Below are positions 7,890-37,085 of a stretch of DNA of 64,000 nt, piece after piece (the stretch's first letter is position 1; each line of letters starts with the position of its first letter). Origin of the DNA: Gnetum montanum (taxonomy: Eukaryota; Plantae; Gnetophyta). Position numbers and translations under genes: made by a program. Location of the stretch: positions 1 through 64,000 of the forward strand of contig MNCI01000175.1 in assembly GCA_015680685.1 (NCBI GenBank), in the 5' to 3' direction. The notes beneath the pieces were generated by a model that was not told the origin of the DNA, did no database searches, and saw nothing but the letters and a program-made list of their open reading frames with translations.

Positions 7890-8659
7890 ACAAAGTACAA
7901 ACATCTTACATCCCAATCTCACTTAACCATACCACTCAAACTAGCATAAGTAATGATTAGAAAGGTAACAACCAACAACTAAATGCCTATTTATCAAAGA
8001 CACTTTGAACCTTAGGTTCCATGATATTCCACTAGATCACATATACATACTTGTGATTCATATGGTTGGACATAGGGAATACTTACTGTTCATTAGTACA
8101 CCTTAGTCAATATGACTTCTACGCTTAGTCTAGGTCTATGTAATTTATTCTACCTAAGCTATCCTATCTCTATACTAGGAATTTATTTGACATATTCTAC
8201 TTTTGACTCTTCCATAATGGACATGGTTGTATGTGTGGATTCTTCTTTTGAATTTAGTTGCCCATGCCTATATCCTCATCCTCTTCCTTATCATTGCTTC
8301 CTTATTTGAAATGGATCACCCACCTTCAAAACTCTTTTAGGTGCCATCTGTAATTACATAAATGATCAATCATTAGTCTTTAGTTACTCTCTTTAGGAAT
8401 TATTACCCTTGATTAGCCTTGGTTTTTTACTTAAGATTTGAAAAACTCTTCATTAACAGCCCTAAGTAATTGTAGTCTATCATTCTAGAGGTTCTCACAT
8501 AGCTATTCTATTCTTAATTTTTCATTATTTTAATTATTCCAAATGAATAGGAGCAATAACAAGACAATAAGGAATGTGATAAATGCCAACAAATACGAGA
8601 AGTACTTCTACATATTAATCTAACATATCAAATAATATTAATATCATGACCCTTTGGAA

Positions 8660-11530
8660 GATAGAAAGTGCATTATAAAGGCCAAAAGACATTTGACGGT
8701 AAGCAAAAGTTCCATATTAACACATAAAAGTTGTTTTATGCTAATCTTGAGGTGCAATGGCTAATTGATTGTAACTACTAAACCCATCCAAAAAGCAATG
8801 GTACTAATGGCCTTTTAATTTCTCCAAATTTTGGTCTATGTAAGGTACGTGAAAATGATGTTTCTTTGTTTTTTATTAAACTTCCAATAGTCTACACAAA
8901 CTTGTCATTTTTTATCCTTTTTACAAACTAGAGTGATAAGGCTTCCCCACTTACTATTAGCTATTGCATAAATAATTCCTTCCTTCTAAAGCTTTGAGAT
9001 TTAATCTTTAATAATTTTTTAGGCTGGATTAATTCTTCTAGGGGGAATTCTTAACAAATTCACATTATCTTCTAGATAAATGTGACATTTGCATATGGTG
9101 GATGAGATTCCTTGATGGTGGGTCTCATAACTTGATGCTTCTTTTATATCTTGATGCAATTGGTCCTCTACTCTATCATATATATTAAGGATGAAAGTAA
9201 GATTGGAAAAATATAATTTGAGTTTCCCTAATCTACAATTTATTATCGCATCAACTATTACCAACCAAGGTATACCTAGTATGATGGGAAAATAATCTAG
9301 ATATTTTACTTCCAATAAAACAAAATCAACTAGGTATTTTCCTCTTTCAACCTATACTATTAAATATTCCATTCAAGAAGCATAATATTGATGGTAGCTT
9401 CTCAATCCAATATGGCATTCTCAATATTGATTGATTACCTTCCTGCTTATTTAATACATGTGGCTAATCCTTTCCTTATGTCCCAACTTCTTGAAAGATA
9501 ACCTTCTTCTGGGGTCCAGGATCAATAGTCTTTCTACTCCTAGTACTAATGGAATGCAATTGTTCCTTATCGTTCCTTTGGAATGTAGGATTTGGCTTAG
9601 GTTGAGAAGGTAATTCTTTATTTATTAGATCTTGGAATAATTTCCCTATTTTAATCATGAATTGCCTACTTTCTTTAATGAAAGAAGTAAGACTTTGAGT
9701 GAGTTTATCCAATTGTTCACTAGTTGGGCTCTTAAAAGGTCTATAATTATTTTTAGAATATTGTTGTTGGAAAGGTGGCCTTTGTTAGAAGATGATTGTT
9801 GGTTACCTTTTATATTGTTGAAAACCTTCATCAATTCTTATGCTTCCTCATAATAACATGTTAATATTGGACAAGTGATGCAATCACGTTGTTGGCTCCC
9901 ACAAAGATTACATACTTCACTTTGCACCACATGAACCTATTTCTTTATTAAATGTATAAACTCATCCACTTTTTTATTTAATTTTTTAGTTTGTTGAGTC
10001 ATGCCTTCAATGATATTTGGTTTTGGCCATCTCTTACTTTGATCGACTAATGAATCTATTATCCTATATCCATCTTATAGTGTTACATTCAATATATTTC
10101 CAGCACACAAAAAGTCAAAATCTTCTCTACAATATGGTAATAGGCCTTCTACAAAGATTTGGAGAAGTTGTTTGGCTAGAAATTAATGGTTGGGATTTTT
10201 TAAGCACAATCCTCTAAACCTATCAAAAGTACTTTCACAAACCTCATTTTTTGTTGCATAAAACTCATTAGTTGCTTTCTTAATGAGTACAACCTATCAT
10301 TGGAAGGAAATATTTGGAGAAATTGAATTCATCTTATGAACTAATTTGTGTCCTAAGGGTTTGTAGCCAGAAATGATATTTATCCTTCAAGGTTGATTTA
10401 AAGGCAATCATCTTAGTTCTATCTCCACTTTGAGGTGCCAACATTGCTAGTGTGGTTTCAAATTCCCTTATATGATTGACTAGATCATCATCATTAGTCC
10501 CTCTAAAAATATGTAGTAGATGAATATTCTTTACTCTAACATCTCTGCCTTGGAAAAAAATAAAGGTTTTTAAGGTATTATTCATGTTCTTTGATTTAAT
10601 AAGTCCCCAAGAGTTTATCCTTGGTAGGCCTATCCAACTAGAATATTACAATGTATACTACCAATAGAAAAAGGAATTGAACCAAATGAAAGTGGATGAG
10701 ATGTATGCTGTGAAGGAGATCCAATTGTGAAAGTAGTAGTTATTGTTGGGGTTACAATTGGACTTGGTATAGAAATAGAGGCTACTGATGCTATAGGAAT
10801 TTGCAAATTTAATGTACTCACCAGTTGAGTGGTTTTTCCCATTGTGGTCACATTACTTAATATTTGGCTGAAACTTAAATTTTTAGAACCTTCTACCATG
10901 GTTGAAGTCATAACTTTCATTGTGATAACTAAGAGATCAAAAAGAGGATTAAAAGATGTAGAAAAATTGGATTGTGTCCTTTCCCTTTTTTGAAGGATTT
11001 CTATTAGATCTCTCTTCTTGTTATGATGTTGCTACTCAATAGAGGTTAAGGGGATAGGACTAGGTTGTCCTTGTCTCTCTTGGTCTTGTTTCAAATTAGT
11101 TTGAGTATGTTTATAATAACTAGTGGTATTTCTAGGAGGCTGAATTCATGTTGGATTTTTAAATTTCTTTTTTGGTTTCATTTAACAATCACACTTCACT
11201 TTAGCACATTCATGGGAAACCAATCCTAAGATCTTATAAATTGATTTAATTACCCTTGAAATTACTACCTTAATTGCAATTTTTTAACAAGTTCTTCAAT
11301 CTAAAAAATTAGGAGGGTTGATCTTTTGAATTTTACTTTTTCCTTGTTTTTCATTTTCTTCATAGAAGAAAAACAATTAAAAGAAAACATTTCTAAAAGT
11401 ACTTTACAAAAAAATGAAAATGAAAATAATTCATATCTTTTTAGAATTTTTAAATCTATAAAGTAAATTTAAAACCATATAGAACCTTTGATGATGATTA
11501 ACTCTACTAGCCTCCCCAAGAGTGCCAAAT
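8660..11530 (-). mobile_element. Athila-like internal region (5' UTR, gag, partial protease, start of RT), 3'-truncated; tandem unit 3
   Basis: Gag ORF 10334-10585 (LHIFRG...VNHIREF...FKSTLKDK..FWLQTL), protease tail FPIILGIPWL, and RT FLDGFSSYNQ / GTFAYRQMSFGL at ~8680-8800. Collinear with 34330-37085. Confidence 0.85.
11511..11527 (-). promoter_or_regulatory. Degenerate primer-binding site (tRNA-Asp type) downstream of LTR-a
   Basis: Reverse complement reads TGGCACTCTTGGGGAGG, 3 nt from the LTR end, at the same position as the clearer PBS at 37065-37082. Confidence 0.6.
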
Positions 11531-12437
11531 TGATGAGCTAGCCAAATTTTGGTGTTGATTTACCTTCATTGTAGAGATGTCATCTTATCTATGACTAACT
11601 CGTGAGTTGTATCCATGGAGGAATAGTTTAAAGTTAAAAATATCATCAAGATAATAAATGATTATATCCATATTCGATTGAAACTCCATACTTATGATTA
11701 TCACTCATCCATAAATCAAAGTCTTTATCCTAGCTTCTAATCTTAAGTCCAAAGGTGAAAACAAATGATTAAACTAAATTGAAAACATATAAAATTAACA
11801 TAAATGTTAGAAGATTACAAAGTAGATGTCACCTAATGTGTTACCCTCCTTTATATCAACTTCACAACCTCATAAGAAGTCAACAATTGTTAATTGCCAC
11901 AAAGTCTCAACAATCCTCCTTAATAAATTTCAATACAATAACTTAAGAAGGGATTCAATTTGGCATGGATTTCTTGGAGTTTGGCTAAAAAAATCCCCTA
12001 TTAAATATTTGGCTTCCTCATTTATACTAAAAAAGACTTGATCAAAATTAGGAATCATTATTTAGAAAATCCATTTACATCGAAGAAATTTATGTCAATC
12101 GATTACAAAGTATCGAACAATATCATGGTTGTTGTGTTCTTTGATGATCGATATAGATAATCTCAGTGATGCAAATTAGTATCTTGATTACTTGGCAAGG
12201 TATTTTTTCTCGTAATTCAATGTTATTGACCTTTAGCATGCCAGCTACAAAAATCGATATGTTTTGGGTTGATATCCACTAATCTTGCAATGACCTATGA
12301 TATGAAAGACTTAATAAAGTTTTTAGTACTTATCAATAGTTATTGCAAAAATTGATGATCTTTAATAAGGTAAAATAGTAAAAGAGAAATGTTAAGCCTT
12401 TAACAAGTTAAAAACTTGAATAATCAAGGGTTTAACA
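11531..12437 (-). mobile_element. LTR-a of the tandem Athila-like family
   Basis: Ends are TGATGA...TTAACA. Aligns over its length to 37086-38015. PPT (reverse complement AGTTGGGGGC) at 12440-12449, PBS on the other side. Confidence 0.85.
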
Positions 12438-12931
12438 TAGCCCCCAACTAGCCTTTGTCCAATGCATGGCTAATTGAGGTGATTAAATATATAAAATTTC
12501 CAATATATATCAATTGCCAACCTACATAACACCACTAATAAAATAGCTAACTAAAATAGTGAAACTAAAATTCAATATATATTAGCATAATATTCCTGCT
12601 AATATCCTTTTGCAAAGAGAAATCAAACTCTATCATATTATAATTAGATGATGATATATGTATAAAAAAAATAAAAATAAAAATTAACCATTAACCATCC
12701 ATCATAGTTCTAGTTTAAAAAAAAATTAAATTGTTCATGTATCACCATAATGGATACACAACCATAAAAATAAACAAAAATAAGATAAAATTGAGGCAAG
12801 GATCAATCCTCTCATCCTTCCTCCACCTCCATATATTTTTCAAAATGAGAGGGCTCTTCTCCTTCATCATTATCCCAAATTTGAGAATGGATATGTTTTT
12901 CCATGTTTTCCATCCTCTTATCCATGGTGAT

Positions 12932-14529
12932 TGAAACATCGCAGAAATCGCGAATCGGCCTAAGGCGAAGATTCACGATTTTGGCAAAAGTTCATGGCAA
13001 AATTCCAGAAGGCAGAACAAGGCGAAATGGCACCCAACATCAAGTCTCCAAGTTCCTTACAGATTCCAAATTTTACTATGTTTTTTATCTTTACGCTACA
13101 TTACGCAACATAGCGTAATGACGCTTAGCGTAAAACGACTTAATATAGTCTGACATCAGAAGGTAACTTACTTCAGCAGATTTGGTGAAGCTTAAGGCCT
13201 AAGCAGCGTAATATGTGACTTCTTGCATATTCTACTAAGTCTTTTTGTCTAGAGTCGAACTTACGCTTTGTTACATAAGGTAGCGTAATGAGCTTCAAAA
13301 AGGTCAAAGGGAAAGTCCAAAGGAAGCGCAACAGATTAAGTTCCTTTCTTTTGCAGATTGATCACTTTACGCTAGTTACACTACACCACGTACGACAAGC
13401 GTAATTTACTGACGAGTTGATCCATTTTTATGCTTCACTACGCTTTGCTGCGTAAATGAGAGTAAAACAACTTGACTCACTCTTTCCATGCTTTGTTATG
13501 CTCCGCCACGCAACGCAGCATAAACAAATGTAATACAGCGTAAAGTCGACTAAAGTGGTTACACATTTGCTATCCATGCGCGCAATACGTTGATGAGCGT
13601 ATTGTGCATAATCATGAAGTAGCTTCGGCAAAAGTGCTGATAGTGTATGTTGCAATGTGACATGACATAGCCAGTTCGTCAAGTCAGCGGTATCCGGAAA
13701 GTTAGGGACATGTGTCATCAAGGCCATGCCTTTTTTGTATGTTGTCAAACTTATAAATACCCTGGTTGCTAGAGGGGACTAGGGACTTTTGGACTTTTTC
13801 AGAGTAGAGCGGCAGTTAGCATCTTCAAACTCTTGGCAGTTATCATCTCTGAGTAGAAACAAGAGACATTTTTCGAGCATTGGTAGTAGGAGCAATCATA
13901 CCTTTTGGCAAAAATACAATTCTCCCACCGGCGATCCTTGGCAGTTTTGAGCAGAGGCTACCCAAAGCGAAGAAGATAGATCAGAGATCGAGAGATTATC
14001 TGGTGAGGTTGGTAAGATATATTGATTAGACACAGTTGATTGATAGGCATCCAAGCTTGACCTTCCTTGCACTTCATCTTTGGCTTACAAGGTAGATTAA
14101 GCTTCATTCTGCACTCCTTGTTAGACAGTTTTTCTTATTATTTTGTGTATATTTCGCATAAGATAATCGGAGTCTTCCCATTGTAACTTTGTGTACAAAA
14201 TACTCAATTTTTCGGGTCAAGGTACAGATCTTGAAATCACGCATTTCACTTAAATCCAATTCCCTTTTGTTGCGTTAACGTTATCATTGTTGTGATTTAT
14301 CTACATCGTTTTCCTCTCCTTTCGCGATTTATCGAATCAAATCGTTCCACGAAACACTTATAATCTTAGTCGATTTACTGATTTAGTAAGTCCCTGTCTG
14401 ATCGACAAGACCATTCAGGGCACTGCGGATTTGTTTTTCTCTAGCACAGCCCTCGCACGGATCCGTGGTTAAGATTGTGTACACGGATTTTGTTTGGTAT
14501 TCTAGCTACTGACATTTTCTATCGTTATA
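12932..14529 (+). mobile_element. Tat 5' LTR
   Basis: TGAAAC...CGTTATA (terminal CA decayed to TA). Direct repeat of 28522-30116. TATAAATA at ~13752. Confidence 0.95.
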
Positions 14530-14781: not shown

Positions 14782-17700
14782 ATGGATTCTGCATACATGA
14801 CCACAGCCGCCATGATTACCATTGACTCAGGTGTCACATCTGTGAACCCTATTACCGTCACCGGACCAACCTCTGGTGTTGTAGGACCTCAGGGACCATT
14901 GCATCATTCATTGAGGTTACAGGGCAAAGATCCTATTTTCACTGTTGTGATGCCTGAGGAATATAACTTCATATGCATCAAGATCCAGGCGAAGCTGGCT
15001 CTCAGCCGAGCCGAGATCAAAGCAAAACGAAATTTTAAGATGATCCACTGAGGGGGTCAGGACTTTACCCCTACCACCTATGACATCATTCCTTTGACAG
15101 AACATCACCATGAAATTATAACACAGTTGGTCATGGATAGGAGCTAGGCTACATGGGCTATGCTGGAACCCCAGAATGAGGAGGAAGAAGATGATGAATT
15201 TGCAACCCAGTCTGAACATTCATATCACACTCTTAGTCCTCATACCTACATAAATCCCTTATTCCCTTTCAATGGAGAAGCCGCCCATATTAATCTCGCC
15301 GTGACCACACAAACTCACGGTCCTGTTGTCCTGCAAGCCACTACGTAGCCATCTGGGCTGCAGGTGCAAATACCCCAAAATAACATGGAGGCGGTCTCAT
15401 CACCATGCGTAATCAGCATTCCGTCGGTGGTCCTAGCATCCACCGTGCCCCATTTCATCCCTCAGATCCAACCCCATGCCATATCTACAACTCGCCTAGT
15501 GCAGACTTTATCGCTGCCGCCCCCTCCAACCCAACAGATCACCACCATCATTCAACCACAGATATCCATCCAACAACCTGTCGTGAGTCAGTGGACCATC
15601 CCCGCGGCCCAGCATAACCAGTCTGCGGTATATGGCGTGCAACCCTCAATTGCACCTGCAACTCATATTCCGCAGATGGTCCCACAATATCCTTATCCCT
15701 ATCCCGTGCAGCCAGCGGTGGCTAACCTTTCTTCTCAAACCGGTGGATGGTGGTCCTCACAAGCACCTCTGTCCGTAGGGATCCTTGCCACACCATCTGC
15801 CGGCCAAACCATCCCTTCATTTCCACTCCTCGGCACTGCTCTCCCAATTCAATCCCCTATGCCTCTTGCATAAACATCTTCATCGACTGGCTTAGATCAG
15901 GCCTTCTTGCTTATTCAGACCCTCATCGAGGAGGTTAGACGCCTTAAGGCCACTGGTTCAGACACTATATAGATCATGAACTTCTATCAAGATGATCCTA
16001 TTAGTCCAGCGGTCCCCATGCTGTCGTTTCCCCCAGGGATGTCCTTACCTTATTTTACCAAGTATAATGGGGAGGGAGATTCTAACGCTTACTTGGTCAC
16101 TTTCAGATCCGAATCCTTGTTGTTACAACAATGGCCTCACACGATTATCCATGTCTTTGCTATGTCTTTGAAAGGGAAATCTTTAGATTGGTATCGAGCC
16201 CTCCCTTGCTCTTCCATCTCAACCTTGGAAGAGCTTCTGACACAATTCGTGACTCGCTTTAAATACAACTTAAAGCCAGAAGTCACGTTAGATCAACTCA
16301 TGGGAGTGAAACAAGACCCACTCAAACCAGTCCAAAAGTTCATACAGCACTGGAGTGCTACTTTGAATGAAATCCATGAGCCAATCGCGAAGCCACACTT
16401 ACTGGCTATCTTCAAAGGAGTAGTCAATGACTTTATCAAGTCTAAGCTGTATTACCTTTCCACTAACTTCTTACATCAGATCTTCGCTCAAACTAAAAGC
16501 ATCCAAGATGCTGCGGAGGCCAGCAAAGACCCGGCGTATGTCGCCTACAAAAATGCTCACAACAAGGGCAAGGACAAAGGTAAAGTGACGACAATGACAG
16601 TAGCTGCACTGGCTAAGGGCACAAAGAACAAGAACAAGAAGGCACCTACAGTGCCTCTTGAGACCACGACTAGTGCAAGTAGCACCAGCCAAGACACAGC
16701 TGCCCCTGAAAAGCCCCCCAGCCAAAACCAAATTTTGAGTATAAAGATCGCTCAAAGTATACAGCCCTGCCTGTAAAAACACTCAGAACTATTGAAACAA
16801 TTGTTAGGGGTAGGATACATTCAGCCCAAGAAGGTATCTGAAGAAGCTTTGAAGCATCACAGACGTCATTGTGAACTGCTGAAGAATCCTTTTTTACCCC
16901 TACCTGACAAACCACTAGTTCTGAGGTCTTTCAGGCTTGACTGTTTCTGTGACTACCACTAGTTGTGTGGTCACGATACAGATTACTACTAGGTGTTGAA
17001 AGATGATATTCAACGCATGATTGACAATGGCTCACTCAAACTAGATAGCAGTAGTCCAACGTGTTCGGAAAACCAAGCGTTTCACGTGTACAAGGATCCG
17101 TTGAATGCAAACAACGCACCCTACACGATCAGCGTGGTGAGTATGGACGGTGAGAAGAAAGTACCGTCCAAACAACCTTTTGTGTTGCATGTACCTACCA
17201 ACTCACCAAGGGGGATAGGCTTTTCACTGGCAGCCATTGGTGTCTTGCGGCCACCTTTCATCATCCGAGTGCCTTCTCTAGATTTAACTCAGCCTCCCAA
17301 TAACAGTAAAGCCGCGGCCATGTCCGTGCCCACACCTAAGGTGCCATTCATTATTAAGGTGCCAAAATCACTAGCTGCCCCTTTTACGTAGGGGCAAGCT
17401 TCTAACGCAAGTCACCAACCATCATCTAATAAGCAAAAGGAAGGGGATGTGTCTAGTAATGCCGCTAAAAACCATACTATGCTAGGCTTCGCTAGGCCTA
17501 AGACTTTGGCCTCTGTCCCTACATCTGCGCCTTTTGGGCAAGACAAGGGTACAGAAACACAACCACCATCCCTCGGCAAGAAAAAGAACAACTCCCTGAC
17601 CGATGTTGTTCTGCCCAAGGAGATCTGTCTCTTAGGGCCAATGGAAGAAGACAAAGGGGACAAACAAGCCAGTCGAGAACGGGATCTTCTCGACGTGTTT

Positions 17701-18573
17701 ACGCAGGTCAAACAGGCTCTCAAATAAAAAAATACAACGCTGAGCCTCTATGACCTGCTCATGACATCTCAAAAACACCATGAGGCCATGGTCCACATGA
17801 TGACATCCATACCTGTGGAGGAAAGCTTACCAGCAGAGGAGGAAGCGATACAAGCTGTCATGTTTCTCTCCGACACTGAACGACCTAAACCTACCTCGTT
17901 GACCTTTTATGACGAATCCATCAAAGACGATCTAGAGAAAGGTTAGGTGAAAACTAAGCCCATGTTTATCACCATCCGGATCAGTCAATACCAGATCCGG
18001 AGGGTGCACGTGGATGATGGTGCAACTACAAATGTCATTCCTTATCCCATCATGGATAGGTTGGGTCTGGTCAACCAAATCAATCCCACAATGACAACAT
18101 GTGTAAAGTCGTTCAGCAGAGCACAGGTTCAGATCAAGGGGATGGTGTGCATAGAATTTGTGGCAGGGGATCAATTCCCAATGGATGCCACATTCCTTGT
18201 CGTCGGGGAGATGCCTGGGTTCAACTTAATTCTAGGAAGGTCCTGGTTAGCCCAACTGAGGGAAGTTTCGTCACCTATACACTAGGAAATACACCTACCC
18301 TACGCAGGGGGAGAAGTTGTAATACGTGGTGACAAAATCACCCCCAGAACTATCAACAATATCGAAGAGGAATGGGGTTCGGAGATAGAAAAATTGAATA
18401 ATCAAACCCATCCCCGAATCCCCGAACAAACCAAAGCGAATGATGACAGTCTAGCCTGGGCCAACCTGCCATTCTAGGATGGTGATGTGGAAGAGCCAGG
18501 CCGCAAATCTCCCCGCCCTTATGCATCACTGAATGTGAAGGCCATCAAGAAGCAATTACGAATTAGTGATTGA
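14782..18573 (+). pseudogene. Tat gag-protease reading frame with premature stops
   Basis: ORF-track pieces at 14782, 15160, 15364, 15976, 16993, 17449, 17761 and 17947 all share one frame. Contains a Pro/Gln-rich N-terminus, gag core (KYNGEGD..AYL..F; SLKGKSLDWY), Zn knuckle FCDYH*LCGHDTDY (~16945) and aspartic protease VHVDDGATTNV...LILGRSWL. Confidence 0.92.
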
Positions 18574-18768
18574 TCTGGATGGCCTTTACGCGCATCTTCA
18601 TGTCCCTACTAATTTTTCCTTTTACGCTTAGCAGTTTACATATTTACGCTCACTATTCATTACGCTATTCACATTTCTTTATATACACTATTTACGCTCT
18701 TTGATCATTTTAGTACAATTACGCAGAAATGTACATTATTATTAATTACGCTTTCAAAATTATGCAGA

Positions 18769-18897
18769 TGGCCTGCAACGGCCTAAAACTAGTAATGACC
18801 TGCAATGGCCTTAAACTAGAAATGGCCCGTAGTGGCCTAAAACTACCTCGTATCTTACACAAACACTACCTGGTGGTCCATGATGGCCTTAAACTAG
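18769..18897 (+). repeat. Four copies of a ~24-bp motif TGGCCTGCAAYGGCCTWAAACTAG
   Basis: Three tandem 27-bp units plus one detached copy. Resembles the motif at 26860-27343. Confidence 0.85.
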
Positions 18898-19097
18898 CAA
18901 TTCCGTGTTATAGCAATGCCAACTATCAATAGTCTTTAAAAATTCCACTTACGCTTTACAAATAACGATATAAAACCAAAAATAAATAAATATACAAATA
19001 GCATTTAAAACCATACAGAAAAGCTTAATGCCAACGTTGTCAACATTCATATACCCATTGTTCAATCCCAATCAATAAAATTATGCGTAAGTTACAG

Positions 19098-22000
19098 TTA
19101 TGCATCTCCCCTAGTGCCACTATCACCAGTATCCCTTAGGTCAGGCTCCAAGCCTAATAAATCCTCCTCAAGTGGGTCGTCCTTCTTAGAAGGTATTCCT
19201 TCGTGAGGAATGCCATCCCCATGAGGCCCTTGCTCCAACGTCGACTCCACAAGAGGACGCTCTTTGCTATTACGCTCCTCTTCTTGTGCTTGTTCCTCAT
19301 CCTGTTCTCCTTCACCCTCTAATTCTTGTACATGTATATAGCAAATGCGTTAGCAAAGACTTGACATCACAACTAAGAAAAATTAGATTCAATAATGTTT
19401 AAACTTACTCGCGATGATCCTGCTTCCGCAGCAAAAGGGAGCTTTTCTAAACCAATCGATAGGCGCTGCATGATTTCATCCTTAGTTAATTCAGACCATA
19501 CGTCGTTTCCTAGAGCAACACCAGCTTTCACCTTCCCCTTTTCCACACTGGTCCAGCGAGGCGGGTCAAGGAAGAAAGTAGGGACAGTAGTCTCGCCCCC
19601 GGGAAGAGACATTTCTCTTTTTGGTGACACGTTTATTGTCACCTGCTCCTAAAAAGTTTCGAAAGCTTGGGATGTGCCAATGACATCCAGGAATACCCAC
19701 AAGCATTAAGCTTCAACGGTAGAATCACAATAATGCTGACGATAAGTGATACTCTCTCGCTTATACAAATGCTTGCGATCCTTTTCTTTCTGCCCCCACT
19801 CTTGCACGCTTGCGCAGAAATCCTTCCAGTCTTGGCTTTTCTGTGATAAAAGCTCTATTTGTATCCACTACTCCACCAAATCCTGACTGGTTTGCACACT
19901 GTTCCTGATTGCGGTCCAATAGCGAGAGTAGTCAATCACAGCTGTGCACCAGTCGTCCTCACCCGTTTCCCGCGCCTGCAGGAACTGGCATCGCAATTTC
20001 AAGTCTCCGACCTCTATGGCCAGAGACTCCTTCTCCCTCTCTAACCTCTGCGGCCTTTTCCAGAGGTCTTCATTGACACTCTTACTCTCTCACAAGGAGC
20101 GAGTCGAGCGTAACGCATATTTACAGATTTTCTCATAAATGCTGTGTGGCACAATCGCCCCGTCAGATGGAGGCTCCACTGTGTCCAAATCAATGGGCTC
20201 CATTGGGTCCCATCGAAGGCGAGCTCCTGATAGCAAACATTATCAATATAAATGAAACATTACCACTTTTTAATAACGTAAACCCATTGATGATATAACA
20301 TATCGGCTCTAGGATCAACACACTCAAGGCGCTCGATCATATTGCTAACAATGCCTTCCATGAAGGCAAAGTTGTCAGGAAACTCTCTCCATGTTCTGCT
20401 TATAGAGGTGGGCATGGAGGCATCCTCTTCACCTGTAGCATAATTTAGTTAAAAATCCTAATTATTAACAAAACACCTCAAGACATCCAATACGTTTACT
20501 ACCTATGCTTGTTACAGTGGGGAGTGCGTCAACAGTTCCCACCTCCTCCCTCTCTTCACGCACAAGGGTCTGTGCATCGCTAGTCCTAACAGCTGGGGCC
20601 TCTTCTTCCAAAATCAGGGCCCCTTCCCCACGACTTAATATTACTGCCCTTATCTTAGGGGTCAACTACTCCGTAGGTCTCACTGTTCAAATTACATACA
20701 CATTTAGACGATTCAAAATATCCTGAATAAAAATTGCATAATACAATAACTCACTACGTTTCTTTTATGCTTACCAGGCGGAGGTTTACTCCGCTGAACT
20801 CTGACTTGCATGGTTCGACCTGTGCCACTCCCAGGCTCCACAGGGACCTCGATTAAGTGAAGCCTTTTACACCGAGCCAAGGGCTCTACAATTTCTACCG
20901 CCAAGCGTTTCCCTCGTGAAGCATCACCAGTGTAAGTGGGCATCACCACGCCTATGCTGTCGGGGCCTTGCACTCGAGATGCTACCAAATCCCTTGTCGT
21001 TATAGACAGAGATTCGCCAATCCCTTCCAGGGGATCCTTTCCACGGGTAGTGCCAAAAATGTGGGTAATCTAAGGTTTGGATAGCTGGTCTCGGTCTTGC
21101 TGCACCCAGACCCCATTCCTCTGGATGACCAAAAATTCAGCAAAACGCTGAAGGCAAGCTATGAAGAAGGCGTAATGCACGTTGAAACAAGAATTAAGCT
21201 TCAGCCTAATCATCTTAGTGCGTAATCCCTCAGCAAAATAGCTTGCCCAGTTGAACTAGGTCCCTTCCTCCATAACCTCCCGCATGATACAGGTCTATTC
21301 TATGGAAAAGAACTTTCCCTGCGAGAGTGTCTTGGGGAAAGCTCGGGCCCGGAATAGGGGATAAATCATCTTGGCAATCTCTAGTTCAATCTTCTCACAA
21401 GGGATCCCCTTAGGCTCCTTCTTGGCCCCTAACCACTCCTCTAGTCATTCCTAACAGGAAAGGCTCCTCTTCGTCTTTTCTTCTATGGGAAGGTCATCAG
21501 AGGGGACGCCGAAAAGGTCTACAAAAAGCTGAGCATCAATATCAAAATGTACACGTACGTGATGCACGCGCGTGTAGAAGCGCTCAGCCCTTTCGCTGAA
21601 GGAGTTGACCAGGGTTAACATTTCACTGGCGGGGACATCAGGGGTTATGGCCAAAAATAAGTGCATTAGCCTCGCTTAGCGTAGCTTGGTGACCAATGCA
21701 ACTAGGGCCACCACGTGGCCGAGCCAGCGTTGCGCCTCCTTGATGTTGCCGTAGCGGAAGAAAAGGGTATTCACCTCACGGCTGAAAATTGTAAGGGTAA
21801 TCTCCCAGGATTCCCTGGCTGAACAATGCAAGACACATGTCAAAAAGAACTATTACGTGACATTCAAAATTCACAATTACACCACGCAACAATAAAATAC
21901 GTAGCAGTTTTACTAGGTCCAAATGGTAAAGGAAATGGAGGAAGTTTCCTCTGTATGTCCGCAACGGTAAGGGGGGGATCCAAAGTCCAATCTTCATGTA

Positions 22001-23124
22001 GCCACCCGATATTCTGGCAATTCTTGAAAGCGTCAGCATAACGGGTGGGGTACTCATGAATGTCAAAGCCGATCTGCCCCATAACACCAGCACGTACATT
22101 GCTAGTAGAGGTAAATGCCTTTATTGCCGTTTCAGTCCACGTTAAGGTATCACCATCGCCTACTAACTTGTTCTCATGGATAAAAAACCTGTACCATACC
22201 ACATATGCTTATCTTACACTTTACAAAACTTAGACAATAGACATATAATGACAATACCGCCAATAAAAACCACTTACCCCCCTGAATAATACATCGTGCC
22301 TGGTGGGTTCTGGAAATAGGTTGAGACGTGACGGGCCACGAACAAAGTGTTGTATGCATGGTAACAGCTAAACTGAGCCATTTCCCAAATCCAACTTAAG
22401 CACCTTAATCCTCTGGCACTAAGTTCGCGGTACTGGGGACAACCAGTGTCGATATCCTCATCTGTCAAGAAAGCCAGAATTCCCTGCATAGAACCCACTA
22501 GCAGGTGCTCCAAAATGGCGCCAACGATATCTCCTGATAGGTGTGACCATACAATAATGCTATAATTACGCAGTAAAAACTGTAGAAACTCCAGCGCACC
22601 CTTTTGAAACCATATGGTCCTCCCATGCAACCGAGTCTGTGGGGGAGGAACATTAGCTTCGATTGGGTTTATGCAGCATAAAACCCCGACTATATCCAGG
22701 ACGATTAAGATGGGTCTTAACATGATACTGTACAGAGACAATAATAAACACATCAACGTCTAGATGTAGATTTGCATGCTTAAAATAGAGAAAATCTACA
22801 AATTACGCTTAGCTATTCATGCCAAAATCACCTAAACCCTTGCAACAGTACAAGGTTTGTCCCTGACAATGGCGATAGACATAGTCCTAGTGTATAAACC
22901 CTCATTTTAACGTGAGGTCCATAGTCTAAAATTTTAAATTTACGCAGGCGATGCTACAAGAATAAACACTGCAAAAGTAACACGAATAAGCAAGGGATGG
23001 CCTACCGATTCAAAGGCGTAGGGTCTCTCACTTCGACCACCGCCTGCGAGGTATGTTGTAGGCTCCCTTACACCTCATCAATCTTCACCAATTTGGCATT
23101 CTTCCCTCTCACTTTCGGAGCCAT
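19098..23124 (-). pseudogene. Antisense 8-exon accessory gene of the Tat element: FCP1/SCP(NIF)-like domain, PMD-like region, coiled coil, acidic tail (~1082 aa reconstructed; premature stops)
   Basis: Exons: 23124-23006, 22727-22278, 22188-21914, 21818-20775, 20682-20503, 20432-20304, 20226-19409, 19331-19098. Five introns are GT..AG, one donor has decayed to AT (20303) and one acceptor to CAT (19332-19334). All phases join into one frame of 3249 nt. Some junctions have nearby alternatives. Confidence 0.85.
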
Positions 23125-23280: not shown

Positions 23281-23610
23281 TGCAAAATTTAACCGACTTG
23301 ATACCCGATTTTAGCGAGACTTGCCCAAATACTGGTGTCAGTATGAGCTGGAACCCAAGGATCAAGACATTAATTACGTCAGATATCACACGCATTACGG
23401 TTCGAAACAACCCTAAACTACCGTATCTTATCTCCTCGTAGTCAGGTCTCATTAATTATAGGCTATTCGCAAAATTTAAAATTCAGTTGGCTTTACGCTC
23501 GGTAACATCACGTCACGTCCCATACACTAAACTAAGTGTTATTCGTTAAACACTCATCGCATCAAACTTAATAATCTTTCTAATTACTCTCGTATTTGAC
23601 AATTTTGTAG

Positions 23611-26600
23611 GATAATTGACAGATGGACGAGATTTTATCTGCACCGCTAGTTTTAACAAGCTTACACGGTAAAATCATTAGACAACTTGATCCCACACTA
23701 ATAGAAACTAACCTAGCCCTTAATGACGTAATCATAGCCGCATCGGAAACATCTCCAGACTGGCCAGAGCAATCGATGCGCACGCTAGATCTGGAAGCTG
23801 GAGATGTAACCGAAGATCCACTCAACGAAGTCTCTGTGGTTATGCATAGGGGTGAAACTAAAACTCTCAAGGTTAGTTCTCTATTAGACCAAAGGGTACA
23901 GGATGACATAAAATAGGTCCTCCAAAATAATATCACGGTGTTTGCATGGTCATATGAGGATATGCCGGGACTAGACCCAAGGTTAATTCAACACAACATA
24001 ATCCTAGATCCCCATATCAAAGCCGTCAGATAGAAAGCACGAAAGATCAAGCCAGAATTCGTGCTAGCAGTACGTGATGAAATCACTAAACTGTTCCAGG
24101 CTAGTTTTATTCGCGCGGTTGATTACTCAGATTGGGTATCTAACATTGTAGTGGTTCCTAAAAAGACTGGGGGAATACACATTTGCATAGACTTCCGGGA
24201 CTTGAATAAAGCTACAATCAAAGATAACTTTCCATTGTCGAGTATCGATCAATTGGTGGATACAACCATTGGACATGCACTTTTGTCCTTCATGGATGGC
24301 TTCTTCGGCTACAATCAAATACGCATCAACCTAGAGCACCAGCTAACAATGACATTCATGACGCCCTGGGGAATCTTTTGTTACACCATGATGCCTTTTG
24401 GATTAAAAAACGCTGGAGCGACGTACCAATGAGCCATGACGTACATCTTTAGCGATTACCTCCTAGGGAGACTGAATGATTATTTCGACGATATAGTTAT
24501 TAAGTCTATAAAGTCAGAGGATCATTCAGAGGATCTGGAGTTAGTCCTTAAAAGATGTTCTAACTACAACCTCCAAATCAACCCAAAAAAGTGTGTGTTC
24601 GAAGTCAAAACCGAACACATGCTGGGTTTTGTGGTCTCAGAAACTGGTATATGCATAGATCCCGACAAAGTCAAGGCCATTGTCAAACTGATGCCCCTTA
24701 CAAGTCTTAAGAAATTGCATAGATTACAGGGGAGGTTACAGTTTATCAGGCGGTTTATCTCGAGATTAACCAACAAATTACACCCTATGCAACATTTGCT
24801 TAAAAACTGGGTTAATTTCGAATGGACAGAAGATTGTCAACGTGCGTTTGACAGCTTGAAGCAAGAGCTTCAACGCTTGCCAACAGTTTTCTCGCCGCAA
24901 AGGGATCAGCCATTTTACATCTACCTCGTGACTTCATACGTAGCATTAGTTGCATTACTCTGTCAAAGGAGGGATGATGGGTCAGAAGTACCCATCTACT
25001 ACTTGAGTCATGCTCTATGTGCGCATGAAAAGAGCTACAACGAAGTAGAGCGTAACTGCTTAGCATTAGTATTTACGCTCAAGAAGTGTAGGCATTATCT
25101 TTTCTACAGCCAGGTCAACATCATCTATAAAAATAATATTCTTAGGACCATTACGCATAACTTATACGAAAGTAGCAAAATAGCTCGTTGGAAGGCCATC
25201 ACAACAGAATTCGATCTGCATTACATTGGCCAATCTTCTACAAAAGGCCAAGCGATAGCCAATCAATTAGTAACATCACCTATTGATAGTCAAGCAACCA
25301 TAGAGCCTGAATTTCTGGACGAACACGTACATAGATTAAGCCCTGTCCTGACAGGCGCCGAAGCAACGTTATACTTCGACGGAGCTTCAACTGTTAGAGG
25401 CGGCAGCGCCACTACAGTTATTACATTATCACCTGAGGATGTGCGTCTTCACGCTTATCTCTTGACCTTCCCCTATACAAACAATGTGGCAGAGTACGAG
25501 GGGCTCCTCAGAGGATTACTAACTGCCAGCGAACTTGATGTTCGACACCTGGCAATTAGGGGTGATTCGATGCTCGTCATTAATCAGGTCAGAAGAGTCT
25601 ACGCCTGCAAGGCTGTACACTTATAGCCCTACTACGATATGGCTAAAGATCTTCTGAGGTGGTTCATGACCATCGATGCCCAACACATGCCACGAACTGA
25701 GAACACACTGGCCGACGCACTGGCTACACTGGCTTTGAACGTGCCCTCACACCTGCTCGACACTTGTCCCGCATTAATAATAGATTGCACAGAGCCCATC
25801 ATTTAGGCAGCCCAAATATCTTCTCTGCTCGAGGATAGAACGCCAGAGTGGTACGATAGCATTAAGACTTATCTCTTGCAAGGCGAGCCACCTCATGAAT
25901 TAACACGCACGCAGAAAGATGCAATCCACAAGCGAGCTAGGCAGTACGTCATCATAGGAGATAGTACTCTTTGTAGACGCTCTTTTAATGGTGTGTTGCT
26001 TACTTACGTTAACAAGGGCCAAGCACAACGTATAGTTGGCAAGGTCCACGAGGGACTATGTGGAGGACACGTAGCACCACGGGCTATGGCTTCAAAAATC
26101 CGCAACAGATTTTCCATTTTATCTTAGACAACATTGTAACCAGATTTGGTTTCTCGATGACTATCGTGACTAATAACGGGCCACAATTTAGTAGTACGGA
26201 AACGAAATCCTTCTGTGATAGCCTCGGCATTAAACAATCTTTTTCCTCATCTTATTACCCATAAGCGAATGGTCAAGCTGAAGCCACGAACAAAGTCATC
26301 ATCAATCTGCTCAAGAAAATGCTTGACAACAACAAAAGACGGTGGCATGAAAAAATTCTCTATGTGCTATGGGCATATCGTACTACATGTAGGACGGTTA
26401 CAGACAGCACACCCTATAGCCTAGTCTACGGATCTGAGGCAGTGCTGCCCCTCGAATTGCAAATTCCTTCTCTAAGAATGGTCCTCTCCACGATTATAAA
26501 TGAGGCTCAACACACCAAGTCTCGGATCATGGATTTAGATTTAGTAGAAGAAAAGCGAATACAGACTCTTGATACAATAGAAAAGTATCAAGACAAGCAG

Positions 26601-26822
26601 AGGCAAAAGCATCGTCACAATCTTCAGCAGCGTCCGATCAAGAAAAGAGATTTAGTTCTCAAGGTCGTTCACGAACCAGTGGGCAAATTCTCTGCAAACT
26701 GGGAGAGCCCTTTCTTGGTAACCAATGCGTATGGCAACGGGGCATTCAAGCTAGCAAATATCGACGGCAACGAGTTACCAAATCCTGTCAATCATATATA
26801 TCTGAAGCGGTACTACATATAG
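23611..26822 (+). pseudogene. Tat pol: RT, RNase H, additional archaeal-type RNase H (aRH), integrase with internal deletion
   Basis: ICIDFRDLNKA, FMDGFFGYNQI, MPFGLKNAGATYQ and YFDD (RT). ERNCLALVF (RH). LYFDGAS...TNNVAEYEGL...IRGDSMLVINQV (aRH). HEGLCGGH, NGPQF and VLWAYRTT (INT). One frame from 23611 to ~26100, then a frame switch. Confidence 0.95.
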
Positions 26823-26859
26823 CTGCATCTCTAGTGTGAACATCAGGTATGGCCATAAT

Positions 26860-27343
26860 CGTCCGCTATGACGCTAAACTAGCGACAACCGTTTGCTACG
26901 ACGTAAAACTAGCACTACCTTCACGCGTCCTCTATGACGCTAAAATGGCATTGATCATCCGCCATGATGTAAAACTGGCAAGTTGTAACCATCTGCTACG
27001 ACGTAAAACTAGCAATGTTGTACAGGTCCACCACGACGAAAAACTGGCATCTTTTGCACATGTCCGCCATGACGCTAAACTGGCACTAGCTGTCTGCCAT
27101 GACACAAAACTAGCACAGGTAAGTATTCGTCTACCGAGACGTAAAACCAGCACAGACTTGTCCCTGGGTCATGAAACAAAACTGACACCCACAGCGCGGT
27201 CTGTTGAGACCATAAATCAGCTTCGCCACCATTCGCTATGACGTAAAACTAGCATTTTTCAGTCCGCCCAAACTTTAAACTGGGACCATGGTCTGCTGAG
27301 ACTTAAAATCAACAACGACAGTCTACCAGGACTTAAAACTGGC
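26860..27343 (+). repeat. Array of ~15 copies of a ~23-bp motif (GTCYGCYAYGACGYWAAACTRGC) separated by short variable spacers
   Basis: Copies read directly, e.g. GTCCGCTATGACGCTAAACTAGC, GTTTGCTACGACGTAAAACTAGC, GTCCGCCATGACGCTAAACTGGC. Spacers are ~6-14 nt. Confidence 0.9.
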
Positions 27344-28508
27344 ACTCATAAGCTACCATCATGCAAATCAAGCAAGCGTGATCATCTCTGTGCAGCCGCA
27401 AGACAAACGAAGTGGGATGCTGAGACAGCCCCAGCGTCACTACCTCACTGGCATTCTGTTGATCTCTCGGATGTGCTGAAGGGCATACTACTGACCCCTC
27501 GGAGATACCGTCACCGTACCCATTCCAGCAGTGGTACCTCTAAGAGGTTAGTTTTGCCGCCCAGAGCCCCAAAGGTATTCTCATCAATTACAACTTTTGG
27601 GATCTCTGCTCATCATCACTATCAGGCTCTAGCTTCACAGATTCATTTGGCTGGTTCCTTACATAACCAGTCAGATGCGCTGAGTCTGATGTGCTTTGGC
27701 GGTGATATGCTGGGCCGGGCGTCAAGGGTGAAGACTTAGGCCTCGTGCTATAGTTCCTCCTTCACAGGCCGATCATTTTATCTTGCCTCTAATAGTGCTT
27801 GTTTCAACAACCTCGCCCACGATTCGCAAGGACAATGGTATCCTCTGTTCTCTTCTATGGTTGCAGGTTACTTGTTATGAGAACATCGTTCGAAGGTGCG
27901 TTCATCTAAGTGGTGTAATGTCGACAGCATTTTGAGATGGCTACCTGAGTTGGCCTGTCCACTCGGGGAGTGCATCCTTGTGTTCCTCGTAATCCTACCC
28001 CTAGTCCTTATCACTATCCTTAACTATCCCATTTGCTTCCCTTACACAAAACGTGAAACACTCTCCGCATTTGCATTACACTCAAGTCCATGAACCGGTG
28101 TAACGCAACTCGCCTAGTGGACGCACAAAAAAAAAGAGGGGTCGGAAAAATGGGTGAAACACATCTCACTCAGGCCGTGCAGATGCCACACAGTTCATCT
28201 ACGCAAGCCCCTTCATCCACAAAACGACGGCATAACTCCATGCAAACGCAATCGCAAGAGAATGCCTGAGTGCTTATGCGTGAAGATGCTATCCCCACCA
28301 CATTTGGGTCTTCCTCGAACCATGTTTGCATCTTCCCTGAACCTATTTCCTCCCGTACCATTCTATCCTCGGATTTCCTTATCCCTGCACCTCTATGTTG
28401 ATAGGATTATACTTGAGTATCTGTTGATAAACGCTATTGGTACTTTCATCAGTCTGGTGTTTTGTATTCTTTGTCGACGTCTTTTAGGCATGCCCTCTAA
28501 CCGTCAAC

Positions 28509-28517
28509 AAAGAGGGG
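28509..28517 (+). promoter_or_regulatory. Polypurine tract of the Tat element
   Basis: AAAGAGGGG just before the 3' LTR. The same motif occurs in reverse at ~61730-61740. Confidence 0.85.
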
Positions 28518-28521
28518 CCAT

Positions 28522-30116
28522 TGAAACACCACAGAAATCATGAATCGGCCTAAGGCGAAGATTCACGATTTGGGCGAAAGTTCATGGCAAAATTCCAGAA
28601 CGTAGAATGAGGCAAAGCGAGGTGAAACGGCGCCCAGCATCAAGTCTCCAAGTTCCTTACAGATTCCAAATTTTACTATGTTTTCTGTCTTTATGCTACA
28701 TTATGCAACATAACGTAATGACGCTTAGTGTAAAATGGCTTAATATAGTCTGACATCATAAGGTAACTTACTTTAGCAGATTTGGTGAAGCTTAAGGCCT
28801 AAGCAGTGTAATATGCGACTTCTCACATATTCTGCTAAGTCTTTTTGTCTAGAGTCGAACTTACGCTCTATTACGCAAGGCAACATAATGAGCTTCAAAA
28901 AGGTCAAAGGGAAAGTCCAAAGGAAGCGCGATAGATTAAGCTCCTTGCTTTTGCAGATTGATCACTTTACGCTAGTTACGCTACGCCGCGTACGACAAGC
29001 ATAATTTACCGACGAGTTGATCCACTTTTACGCTTCACTACGCTTTACTGCGTAAATGAGCGTAAAATAGCTTGACTCACTCTTTCCATGCTTTGTTACG
29101 CTCCGTCACGCAACGCAATGTAAACAAATGTAATACAATGTAAAGCTGGCTAGAGCGGTTACACATTTGCTATCCATACGCGCCATACGCTGATGAGCGT
29201 ATTGTGCGCAATCATGAAGCAGCTGATAGCGTATGTTGCAATTTGACGCGACATAGCCAGTTCGTCAAGTCAGCGGTATCTGGAAAGTTAGGGACATGTG
29301 TCATCAAGGCCATGCCTTTTCTGTATGTTGTCAAACTTATAAATACCCTGGTTGGAAAAGAGGAAAGAAGGGACTTTTGGACTTTTTCAGAGTAGAGCGG
29401 TAGTTAGCATCTTCAATTCTTGGTAGTTATCATCTCTGAGCAGAAATAATAGACATTTTTCGAGCATTGGCAGCAGGAGCGATCATACCTTTTGGCGAAA
29501 ATACAGTTCTCCCACCGGCGATCCTTGGCAGTTTTGAGTAGAGGCTACCCAAAGCGAAAAAGATATATCAGAGATCGAGAGATTATCTGGTGAGGTTGGT
29601 AAGATCTATTGATCAGACACAGTTGGTTGATAGGCATCAAAGCTTGACCTTCCTTGCACTCCATCTTTGGCTTACAAGGTAGATTAAGCTCTATTCTGCA
29701 CTCCTTGTTAGACAATTTTTCTTATTATTTTGTGTATATTTCACACAAGATAATTGGAGTCTTCCCATTGTAACTTTTTGTACAAAATACTTAATTTTTC
29801 GGGTCAAGGTATAGATCTTGAAATCACGCATTTCGCTTAAATCCGATTCCCTTTTGTCGTGTTAACGTTGTCATTGTTGCAATTTATCTACATCGTTTTC
29901 CTCTCCTTTCGCAATTTATCGAATCAAATCGTTCCACGAAACACTTATAATCTTATTCGATTTACTGATTTAGTGAGTTCCTATATGATCAACAAGACCG
30001 TTTAGGGCACTGCGGATTCATTTTTCTCCAGCACAGCCCTCGCACGGATCCATGGTTAAGACTATGTACATGGATTTTGTTTGGTATTCCAGCTACCAAC
30101 ATTTTCCATCGTTACA
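28522..30116 (+). mobile_element. Tat 3' LTR
   Basis: TGAAAC...CGTTACA. Direct repeat of 12932-14529, differing mostly by transitions plus two short indels. Confidence 0.95.
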
Positions 30117-32039
30117 GTGATGAGGGTTGAGCTTACCCTCTCCAATACTATCAAAATCTATGATAATCAACATTGAGATATCCTTCAATAAAATAATTTT
30201 TGATAATCACCTAATATCATGTGATGTGATACAAATTGATAGTAGAGTGATAAATTTATTCACTTAATAATATACAAAATTTTATTCCTTTTTTCACTTC
30301 TCATGATTGATTCTTATTAGTTGGATAGGATTCCACATATAACTCTATTAGGAAGACCCTTCCTAGCATTAATTAGGCTAGAAATCACCTCATAAATTTT
30401 TCTTCATTTGGTGCAAGAGTGTCTTACAAACTCAAGCTCTTGAACTTTCCTAAGTTTTAAAGATCCAAGATGCATTTCATGCATCAAACTCATTCCCTAA
30501 ATTACTCTTAGATTAGCTTCCATGTTGGTTATACTCTACTATTCTATCCATTTGAAGCTGATTATCCCACCCTCCCCCTATAATTAAACTAGGATATGTT
30601 CCATACCTAAGTTAATTAGTTAAATAATTATTAAATAAATGGAAATTACGCTCACCAACAGGATATACCAAAAAGCAAAAATGCTTTGGATTTTATATAT
30701 CCTTCACTATGTATCAAATACTAGTAATTTAGGCGTTACAAATGTTAATATCCATAATGTTATGCCATAGTAGGGATCTCAACCATTAACACCTATGAAG
30801 GGCATAATCGGAAACACATGTAAGACCCTAGAGCAAGAAGGACCAATAGACATAATAGATGATATATCAATAGAAAGTATCAAGGATATAGCCAAAAATA
30901 TAGAAGTAAAATAGGAATAAATAATACTCTTTAAAGTATGAAGTAACATGAAGCAAAGGACAAAGGAAGCCAAGTAAGGTAAATGGTCAAAAATGAAAGG
31001 GAGTAAAATACCTCTTGAGGTTAATCAATCTGCCATGTACAATGTCATATCATAGCTAAAATTTGATAACATAGAGAATAAGTATGAGACATTGCTGCTC
31101 CATAGATAGACATTCTACCTATGGAAGGAGGTTCTTGAGGGATGCTAAAAATTATGAGCCTTTTACATTGCTCCAACTATAAGATTTTTGTGGGAGTGTG
31201 GCCCTACTCATGATTGAAGGTTCTTGTGGGACCCTATGTTCATATTGGTAATTTGTTTTTCTTAATGGGATTTTCTTCCATTTAATTTCTTTTTATTTTA
31301 TTGGAAGTAAATAATAAGGCCTTCTTCAATCATGAGGTTCTTGTGGAAGCCAAAGGAATTTTTGAATTTGTTTAATGGATTACTTACATGGACACTGATT
31401 AAGTTTCATATGCTTGTATCACCTTTATTTCTAGTCTCAATATGACACACNGAGGATGGCCAGGGCAAGGAGGGGGACGGGGGAAGTTGTTTTTGAATAT
31501 ATTTAATGGGTTTCTTACTTGGATGCTGATTAAGTTTCTCATGCTAGTGTCATATTTATTGTTAGTCCCAATATGACACAACCTTTTCTCCTTATTGACT
31601 TATCCAAGAAAGTAATTACTAGAACCATTCATTAATGCTTAAGAACCAAACCTGGTTATTGTTCCTATGATTCATGAAACTTAACAAGCTTAAAGAATAT
31701 TATAAAGAAGAAAAAAAAAGAGTTAGTTTACATAGTTTATTGGCTTATTTGTGTAAGGCTCACCCTTGTATGGATTTTTTATCTAAACTAACCTATCTTA
31801 AGGTAGGAGGAGTTGTCCTTCTCCCTTGCATTCTAAACATGATGCTAATGAATTCTTTAAATTCCAAACTAATAATAGAATTTCCCATTGTCCTCTACAT
31901 TTTTCAAAGAAAAATTTTTAGATTAAAATATTTCATTTATTATATTAAAGTATCACATAAGAATTTTGTTTAAGGTTACTACCCATGGCCTAGACTTATA
32001 ACTGAGTCTTTTCATTTCCTCCATTGTCCTTGGGATAAT

Positions 32040-36730: not shown

Positions 36731-37064
36731 TTAACAATTGAACTTCTCTTTAGCACATTTATGGGCAACCAATCCTAAGAGCTTAAAAATTGATTTAGTT
36801 ACCCCTAAAATTACTACATTAATCACAACTTTTTTTACATTTTCTTCAATTTGGGAAATTAGGGGGGATTATTCTTGGGATTGTACTTTTTCCTTGTTTT
36901 TAATTTTTTTCATACAAGAAAACCAATTAAAAGAAACCATTTCTAAAACTACTTAACAAAAGAAAATGGAAATGAAAATAATGCATACCTTTTTAGAAGT
37001 TATAAATCTATAAAATAAATCTAAAAACATATATAACCCTTAATGATGAGTAACTCTATTGACA

Positions 37065-37082: not shown

Positions 37083-37085
37083 AAT

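Follow-up and report, generated by a model that had tools for sequence, protein, structure and literature searches.

The stretch of Gnetum montanum DNA analysed here, positions 1 to 64,000 of the forward strand of contig MNCI01000175.1 (assembly GCA_015680685.1; 64,000 nucleotides, referred to as the window), contains one complete long terminal repeat (LTR) retrotransposon of 17.2 kb, a Tat-type (Ogre-like) Ty3/Gypsy element, which encloses an open reading frame (ORF) resembling NIF/FCP1-type phosphatases. We put at roughly 0.85 the probability that this ORF encodes a pseudophosphatase kept by selection as part of a spliced accessory gene that runs antisense to the element. A first-pass annotation had described the interval 22727-21914 as an FCP1/SCP (NIF, HAD)-like domain carried by an element, and had interpreted it as a pseudophosphatase that might bind the phosphorylated C-terminal domain (CTD) of RNA polymerase II. 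The family assignment was borne out by profile, ESM Atlas and Foldseek results, the location within the element is supported, and a pseudophosphatase is the most likely reading, in contrast to binding of the polymerase CTD, for which no support was found. The interval equals exons 1 and 2 of a larger predicted antisense gene, which that annotation had missed.

The peptides quoted for the domain all lie in a single stop-free frame of the minus strand (22723..22277), which ends at a textbook splice donor; residues are numbered from the Met at 22723. Predicted exon 1 (22278..22727, minus strand) holds the NIF/FCP1-like HAD (haloacid dehalogenase) core. The HMMER comparison with Pfam NIF (PF03031) that had been proposed earlier did find the family (17.4 bits, E 0.0037), but the score did not reach the gathering cut-off of 21.8 bits. 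Searching 1.84 billion proteins with phmmer gave six matches, four of which were NIF proteins, the other two being ankyrin and cadherin repeat noise. With a profile of 28 NIF domains, from which the window sequence was excluded, exon 1 scored 50.3 bits (E 9.6e-17, profile positions 13-155), the next best score in the six frames of the window being -0.7 and the best among the 500 shuffles listed of 1000 being 2.1 bits; this profile leans towards the query because the relatives were gathered by query-seeded searches. In the ESM Atlas the single sequence matched FCP1-homology clusters at 0.91. A word-based search for homologs of the single protein returned nothing, exon 1 found no relative among loci in metagenome or viral contigs, and phmmer against the PDB with exon 1 alone gave noise only. 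Taken together, the domain is a divergent NIF/FCP1-homology HAD domain, related to this family beyond chance.

Its closest relatives form the DxN-type NIF subfamily, whose profile gave a much stronger match to UBLCP1 (E 7e-15) than to SCP1 (E 6e-7). Among database relatives the best identity was about 30%, and no close host gene was found. A phylogeny, as earlier suggested, was made with 27 NIF rows, but it names no donor, host or giant virus, and places the domain on a long branch (3.86). One relative, P0002 from a Sphagnum cluster (588 aa), carries two tandem DxN-type NIF domains. An AlphaFold2 (AF2) model guided by a 25-row alignment reached a predicted local distance difference test (pLDDT) score of 86.4. 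The comparison of a predicted structure with known folds, also proposed in the first pass, gave the expected family: the top PDB matches in Foldseek were CTDNEP1 (E 4.4e-6), SCP1 (7.4e-6), SCP2 and Fcp1, and VIA aligned the same model to CTDSPL over 129 residues (Z 12.8, root-mean-square deviation 3.0). Complexes of SCP1 with CTD peptides are among these top fold matches, and dead family members can still hold a phosphorylated substrate (PMC13543951, in excerpt), as would be expected of a decoy that binds the phosphorylated polymerase CTD and modulates transcription or silencing of the element. We nevertheless regard such a decoy as improbable, since by sequence the relatives are of the DxN subfamily and nearer to UBLCP1 than to SCP1, identity to SCP1 is only 11-14%, and SCP1, CTDSPL and other fold matches lie within about one Z unit of each other and reveal no substrate.

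Comparison with 24 relatives located the changes in the active site. Asp at position 10, Ser at 60, Lys at 107, Asp at 130, Asp or Asn at 131 and Lys at 135, after motif IV, are each present in 24/24 relatives, and Asn at 12 in 22/24. The window domain has D10, V12, S60, R107, A130, R131 and T135. Motif I, DxDx(T/V), thus keeps its first Asp and has Val at the second position in the window copy, motif II keeps its Ser (S60), the Lys of motif III is replaced by Arg, and motif IV, D(D/N), reads Ala-Arg, the ARHV of the window domain being aligned to the DD motif. The earlier description of degenerate motifs was therefore correct for DDSP reading ARHV and for the retained first Asp, but 'DxDxT reads DIVGV' overstated the case, because the nearest relatives read DxN and motif I is only mildly changed. 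Two further changes had escaped it: Arg stands in place of the motif III Lys, and Thr in place of the Lys that follows motif IV. Judged by this alignment, the decisive losses are those of the motif III Lys and of the motif IV Asp-Asp. In Nem1, a member of the same family, Ala in place of the motif III Lys or of either motif IV residue kills activity, and catalytically dead Nem1 still holds its partner and phosphorylated substrate (PMC13543951, in excerpt). Since the motif III Lys and motif IV Asp-Asp are absent across the family of copies, the domain is likely a dead phosphatase. An active enzyme with a rebuilt site, using D10 as nucleophile and Arg residues in place of Lys and metal, would explain why D10 and S60, both invariant in the relatives, are kept, and Lys to Arg is a conservative exchange; with both metal-binding residues of motif IV and the general acid/base gone, and each such loss alone killing Nem1 (PMC13543951, in excerpt), we consider it hardly probable.

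Other copies of the sequence were seen through short contigs and reads only, with contigs at least 80% alike counted. The stretch is a high-copy repeat, 8077 contigs of organism A and 8428 of organism C aligning to 1.1 kb; no contigs of organism F aligned, which is not proof of absence. For organisms B, D and E, three related species, all 35 variant rows at 8% of depth or more were listed for 22296-22460, rows being sites and not independent events. Synonymous changes made up 25/35 of these rows, compared with an expected fraction of 0.30 (p 4.8e-7); the other five frames gave counts of 6-8, or 19 in the opposite-strand frame sharing third positions. Codon 107 had no variant row at this threshold. 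Codons 130-132 varied mainly at third positions (up to 41%, 29% and 93%), and no row reached 8% at positions 1 and 2 of codon 130 or at position 1 of codon 131, so that restoration of the acidic motifs was not seen in these three organisms at codons 107, 130 and 131. In organisms A and C, 16/31 exonic rows were synonymous (p 0.01) among the 40 rows listed, with 291 further rows. Three of the four indels listed among copies fall inside intron 1 and the fourth at its border; no exonic indel away from the exon 1 border was among the rows listed.

On this variation, the motif III and IV losses are a family-wide trait of copies at least 80% alike, and the synonymous bias indicates that, within these sample limits, purifying selection has kept the domain together with its dead site. 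Family-wide motif states and synonymous bias together argue for a selected pseudophosphatase and against a decayed capture. If the domain were a neutrally decayed fragment of a host gene, its lost motifs would be pseudogene damage. The broken window copy, with 12 stops in the model, and the 15/31 listed rows of organisms A and C that are non-synonymous differences from other copies agree with this. Such decay is contradicted by the 25/35 synonymous rows and is very improbable, given also that the motif states are common to three species, that the listed exonic indels are confined to the exon 1 border and that a close host gene is lacking among the sequences found.

The domain is predicted to be exon 1 of a spliced antisense gene of eight exons and not a stand-alone fragment. 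These minus-strand exons join without frameshift into 1082 codons with 12 internal stops, ascribed to decay, compared with 62 and 71 stops in the other two frames of the same exon chain. The introns (six of 70-95 nt, one of 278 nt) are all AT- and T-rich, with a GC content of 0.25-0.37 versus 0.46-0.53 in the exons, and of the 12 canonical splice sites 10 rank first within 45 nt and the other two second. Predicted exon 0 (23006..23124) has its start codon at 23124, one stop at 23070 and a donor at 23005 that ranks locally first; it is the least certain exon. Predicted intron 1 (22189..22277; 89 nt, GT..AG, GC 0.33) is followed by predicted exon 2 (21914..22188), which is in frame with exon 1 and stop-free, has no family match and adds nothing to the NIF profile score. 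The stop-free state of exons 1-2 is not significant (0/17 at-risk codons versus 12/70, p 0.11). Predicted exon 3 (20775..21818) comprises 348 codons with stops at 21678, 21453, 21447, 21297, 21258 and 21072. The chain continues with predicted exons 4 (20503..20682), 5 (20304..20432), 6 (19409..20226) and 7 (19098..19331), in which a possible coiled-coil stretch and an acidic tail were noted; exon 6 weakly matches a dynein light chain segment (E 0.014), the sole PDB sequence match obtained for the downstream exons.

Exons 2, 3, 4, 6 and 7 had no Pfam match, and the pieces scanned also had none in NCBIfam; the plant mobile domain (PMD; PF10536), searched in the decayed copy, gave no Pfam match up to E 5. 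For exon 3 there was no PDB sequence match, and its single-sequence fold (pLDDT 33.7) was unusable. For exon 2 there was no usable ESM Atlas match and no relative in viral contigs. In RNA run X12, reads were strongly one-stranded over 21985-22540 (e.g. 144 versus 2), which is the side on which transcripts of the antisense gene would appear, provided that the library follows the common stranded protocol. In the same run, 69 of about 102 molecules start at 22076, inside predicted exon 2, which suggests either that a single diverged copy is strongly transcribed or that RNA is processed there.

The surrounding element is bounded by a 5' LTR of 1.6 kb (12932..14529, plus strand) and a 3' LTR (28522..30116, plus strand), recognised as a pair with about 90% identity (Kimura two-parameter distance 0.092) and flanked by a 5-bp target-site duplication (12927-12931 and 30117-30121). 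A motif resembling a primer binding site lies at 14536 and a purine tract (28512-28521) stands just ahead of the 3' LTR. The gag and aspartic protease region (15349..18560, plus strand; Retrotrans_gag E 3.9e-5, gag-asp_proteas E 0.0028) is decayed by stops and frame breaks. The pol region (23611..26822, plus strand) encodes reverse transcriptase (RT), RNase H (RH), an additional archaeal-type RNase H (aRH) and integrase (INT), matching RVT_1, RT_RNaseH, RVT_3 and Integrase_H2C2. The additional RNase H (RVT_3, E 1.3e-7) follows RT_RNaseH, as in the Tat clade, and precedes the integrase; the order RT-RH-aRH-INT defines the Ogre and Retand branches of this clade (PMC6317226, in excerpt). The RT region is 33-38% identical to the 17 best database proteins. 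Among 80 metagenome loci retrieved by RT (top 45-62% identical, short contigs), there was no match to the NIF domain or the antisense gene.

Between protease and RT, Ogre elements have a spacer that is an intron, with a mean length of 274 bp (PMC6317226, in excerpt); in the Gnetum element it measures about 5 kb and the antisense gene sits inside. An acceptor-like site on the sense strand (23609-23610) is in frame with RT, and no clear donor in phase with it was found. The length of the spacer, together with the linkage of gene and element resting on a single long copy, would also suit a gene of a separate high-copy DNA transposon (a MULE/CACTA-type accessory gene) nested in the spacer of this copy. 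Intron-rich accessory genes are typical of DNA transposons. We judge this quite improbable: convincing terminal inverted repeats were not found (the best long-range arms were 24 nt at 75% or 17 nt at 82%), there was no transposase match, and one and the same word fills the LTRs and the gaps flanking the gene. Stop density, too, does not differ significantly between the antisense gene (12/1082) and the core genes (12/1969; p 0.14), the core count being biased low.

This word, TTACGC, occurs 46 times in the window (7.4 expected), 42 times inside the element, where its wider context is WTTACGCW, and among the 6-mers of the element's non-coding DNA it ranks first (22 versus 2.75). The 5' LTR holds 11 copies of WTTACGCW, clustered at 13091..13543 (0.76 expected from local dinucleotide shuffles; 0/300 reach 11), and the 3' LTR holds 8, amounting to 16 distinct aligned sites. 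A further 9 copies (0.36 expected) lie in the non-coding gap of 537 bp beyond the stop of the antisense gene (18561..19097), which also contains a 27-bp tandem repeat, and 4 lie around the 5' part of this gene. The gag-protease region has 2 copies and pol 3, counts that shuffles often reach. The CpGs of the motif were not protected after insertion, 12/16 differing between the LTRs versus 34/72 other CpGs. VANC proteins bind short motifs that have accumulated in the non-coding DNA of their VANDAL transposons (PMC5735166, in excerpt), and by analogy the WTTACGCW arrays may be seen as resembling VANC anti-silencing target arrays.

These features can be combined into a mechanism, which as a whole falls somewhat short of even odds: the dead HAD domain would be a binding module at the N-terminus of an antisense factor that protects its own element by anti-silencing or transactivation. 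Packaged sense RNA would be copied with the antisense gene intact, and the introns may survive reverse transcription because this RNA hides antisense introns from the spliceosome. If the sense strand had an Ogre-type intron between protease and RT, splicing would take the whole antisense gene out of the gag-pol message, and the antisense product, a protein of about 1080 residues beginning with the dead HAD domain, would come from its own minus-strand transcript. R107, R131 and H132, the basic residues at the former active site, could grip a phosphorylated partner without metal, and the likely ligand of the domain is a host partner, phosphorylated or otherwise. The downstream domains would bind the WTTACGCW arrays in the LTRs and the spacer and, in the manner of VANC, keep the element expressed. 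In its most specific form, a VANC-like anti-silencing system, the spliced antisense gene would lie in the protease-RT intron, its protein would bind the arrays, and the dead HAD domain would recognise a host factor of chromatin or silencing in its phosphorylated state, in convergence with the PMD/PP7 module of the host; this form is tentative and on balance doubtful.

The same selected pseudophosphatase gene could instead act elsewhere in the retrotransposition cycle, in particle assembly, nuclear import or integration targeting, with WTTACGCW being a host transcription-factor site. All selection and structure evidence fits such a role, most of the words are concentrated in a single LTR segment of 450 bp, as enhancer sites would be, and for Tat antisense ORFs, which are without known function, nuclear or regulatory roles have been proposed (PMC7264820, in excerpt). 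Against it stand the 9 words in the 537 bp beyond the antisense gene's 3' end, well away from the LTR, together with the 4 near its 5' part; VANC targets are distributed in a similar way, over introns and over intergenic and terminal stretches (PMC5735166, in excerpt). A role elsewhere in the cycle is a serious possibility, if an unlikely one.

Several observations weigh against a selected, spliced antisense gene or against the function proposed for it. Because the AF2 model drew on an alignment of NIF relatives, the fold match is partly circular and not independent of the sequence evidence. In the gene model, five introns are GT..AG, and in the window copy one donor (20303, of exon 5) and one acceptor (19332, of exon 7) are non-canonical; the splice-site ranks depend on weights chosen by us to reflect the plant consensus. 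No spliced joints were listed in two RNA runs (355 and 57 reads), and a deletion at 22265, in intron 1, was present in 10/20 and 5/7 RNA reads, which carry intron-1 letters and are thus unspliced. In run X12 the other strand was equal or stronger around 22614-22687 and 22800-22870, and 299/355 reads were less than 90% alike, i.e. came mostly from diverged copies. Codon 131 has one non-synonymous variant at 12-15% of depth, the absence of variants from codons 10-12 (motif I) refers to 40 listed rows beside which 291 further rows exist, and more distant subfamilies are unseen because only contigs at least 80% alike were counted. The linkage of gene and element is seen in one long copy, that of the window. 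In Pfam and PDB sequence searches no kinship of the downstream domains to PMD or VANC could be detected, and a host transcription-factor site explains the cluster of words in the LTR equally well.

Within the element, a Pro/Gln-rich stop-free frame of 174 codons (15349-15873) lies ahead of the gag capsid region and is probably the decayed gag N-terminus, and a degenerate tandem array with units of about 33-36 bp (26849-27400), 3' of integrase, holds in its units a CG word resembling the enriched LTR word. Outside the element, where CpG observed/expected is only 0.17, the window consists in part of older repeats. An older unit of about 8 kb, containing RT remnants, occurs twice in the window (81-85% identity): one copy is split by the element (8608-12931 and 30153-32242) and the other lies at 34265-42264. 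Several older stretches of Ty3/Gypsy pol sequence, heavily decayed and in most cases on the minus strand, were found at 1-2500, 8600-8950, 33780-34900, 45900-48250 and 56500-58250. A 0.93-kb pair (42447-43374 and 51657-52584; 88% identity, 9.2 kb apart) ends in 33/45-bp tandem arrays and has a third, inverted partial copy at 2990-3669; the pair possibly represents the LTRs of another element.

The function of antisense extra genes in Tat elements is a long-standing question, and most are without recognisable domains. An identifiable enzyme fold with selected active-site losses, together with a candidate DNA word, makes partner and DNA binding directly testable. Neither a NIF nor a phosphatase domain is among the extra-ORF domains in Additional file 4 of PMC6317226 (threshold E 1e-10, at least 5 elements) or in section 12 of PMC9289625 (in excerpt), and the word 'phosphatase' is absent from the searched text of PMC11963269, PMC13547354, PMC13317346 and PMC11728184 (excerpts). 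No literature linking a retrotransposon to FCP1 homology or NLI interacting factor was found by title and abstract, in a search that largely left out subscription papers. Within the surveys and literature covered, no precedent was thus found for a NIF-domain accessory gene or for an intron-rich antisense layout in the protease-RT spacer. Such surveys have a blind spot, in that an ORF of at least 250 codons and a strong domain match were required; the NIF domain would be missed because exon 1 has 150 codons and a sub-threshold match.

With DxN-type NIF proteins (Sphagnum P0002, Adiantum P0039, and CTD-like phosphatases of protists and giant viruses) the Gnetum domain shares the motif order, D10, W59-S60, the NP motif and the predicted fold at no more than 31% identity; it differs in that the Asn of motif I, the Lys of motif III, the Asp-Asp of motif IV and the following Lys are replaced, and in being carried by a retrotransposon. 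SCP1, CTDNEP1/Nem1, Fcp1 and UBLCP1 share the HAD Rossmannoid fold and are matched by the family profile, but they are active, possess DxDx(T/V), Lys and D(D/N), and are only 10-21% identical to the Gnetum domain. In orchids, Gypsy elements that have captured an AlkB m6A demethylase (PMC9289625, in excerpt) likewise have a host-type enzyme domain fixed in a Ty3/Gypsy family; the orchid domain is active and close to host genes, whereas the Gnetum domain is remote and without catalytic residues.

Ogre/Retand elements with extra ORFs (PMD, TRP28, SMC-like coiled coil) have the same RT-RH-aRH-INT order, a protease apart from RT, an antisense accessory gene and a possible coiled coil (PMC4408406, PMC6317226, PMC11963269, all in excerpt). 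In Tat elements, antisense ORFs are placed 3' of pol and sense extra ORFs 5' of gag (PMC7264820, PMC4408406, in excerpt), whereas in the Gnetum element the antisense gene, with its seven predicted introns and its HAD domain, is situated between protease and RT. VANC/VANDAL systems also combine an accessory gene with a short motif accumulated in the element's non-coding DNA, but belong to another transposon class and show no sequence kinship in Pfam or PDB sequence searches. VANC is reported to be structurally like MAIN (PMC13547354, in excerpt), and domains of the MAIN type are found paired with or fused to a PP7-type phosphatase, as in MAIN-MAIL1-PP7L and the MAIL3 fusion (PMC7156037, in excerpt). 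In this PMD/PP7 module a phosphatase-fold domain is likewise joined to a transposon-associated domain in the control of silencing (PMC7156037, in excerpt); PP7 is a PPP-type metallophosphatase and not a HAD protein, and the module is formed by host genes, so that the likeness to the Gnetum antisense gene is one of analogy only.

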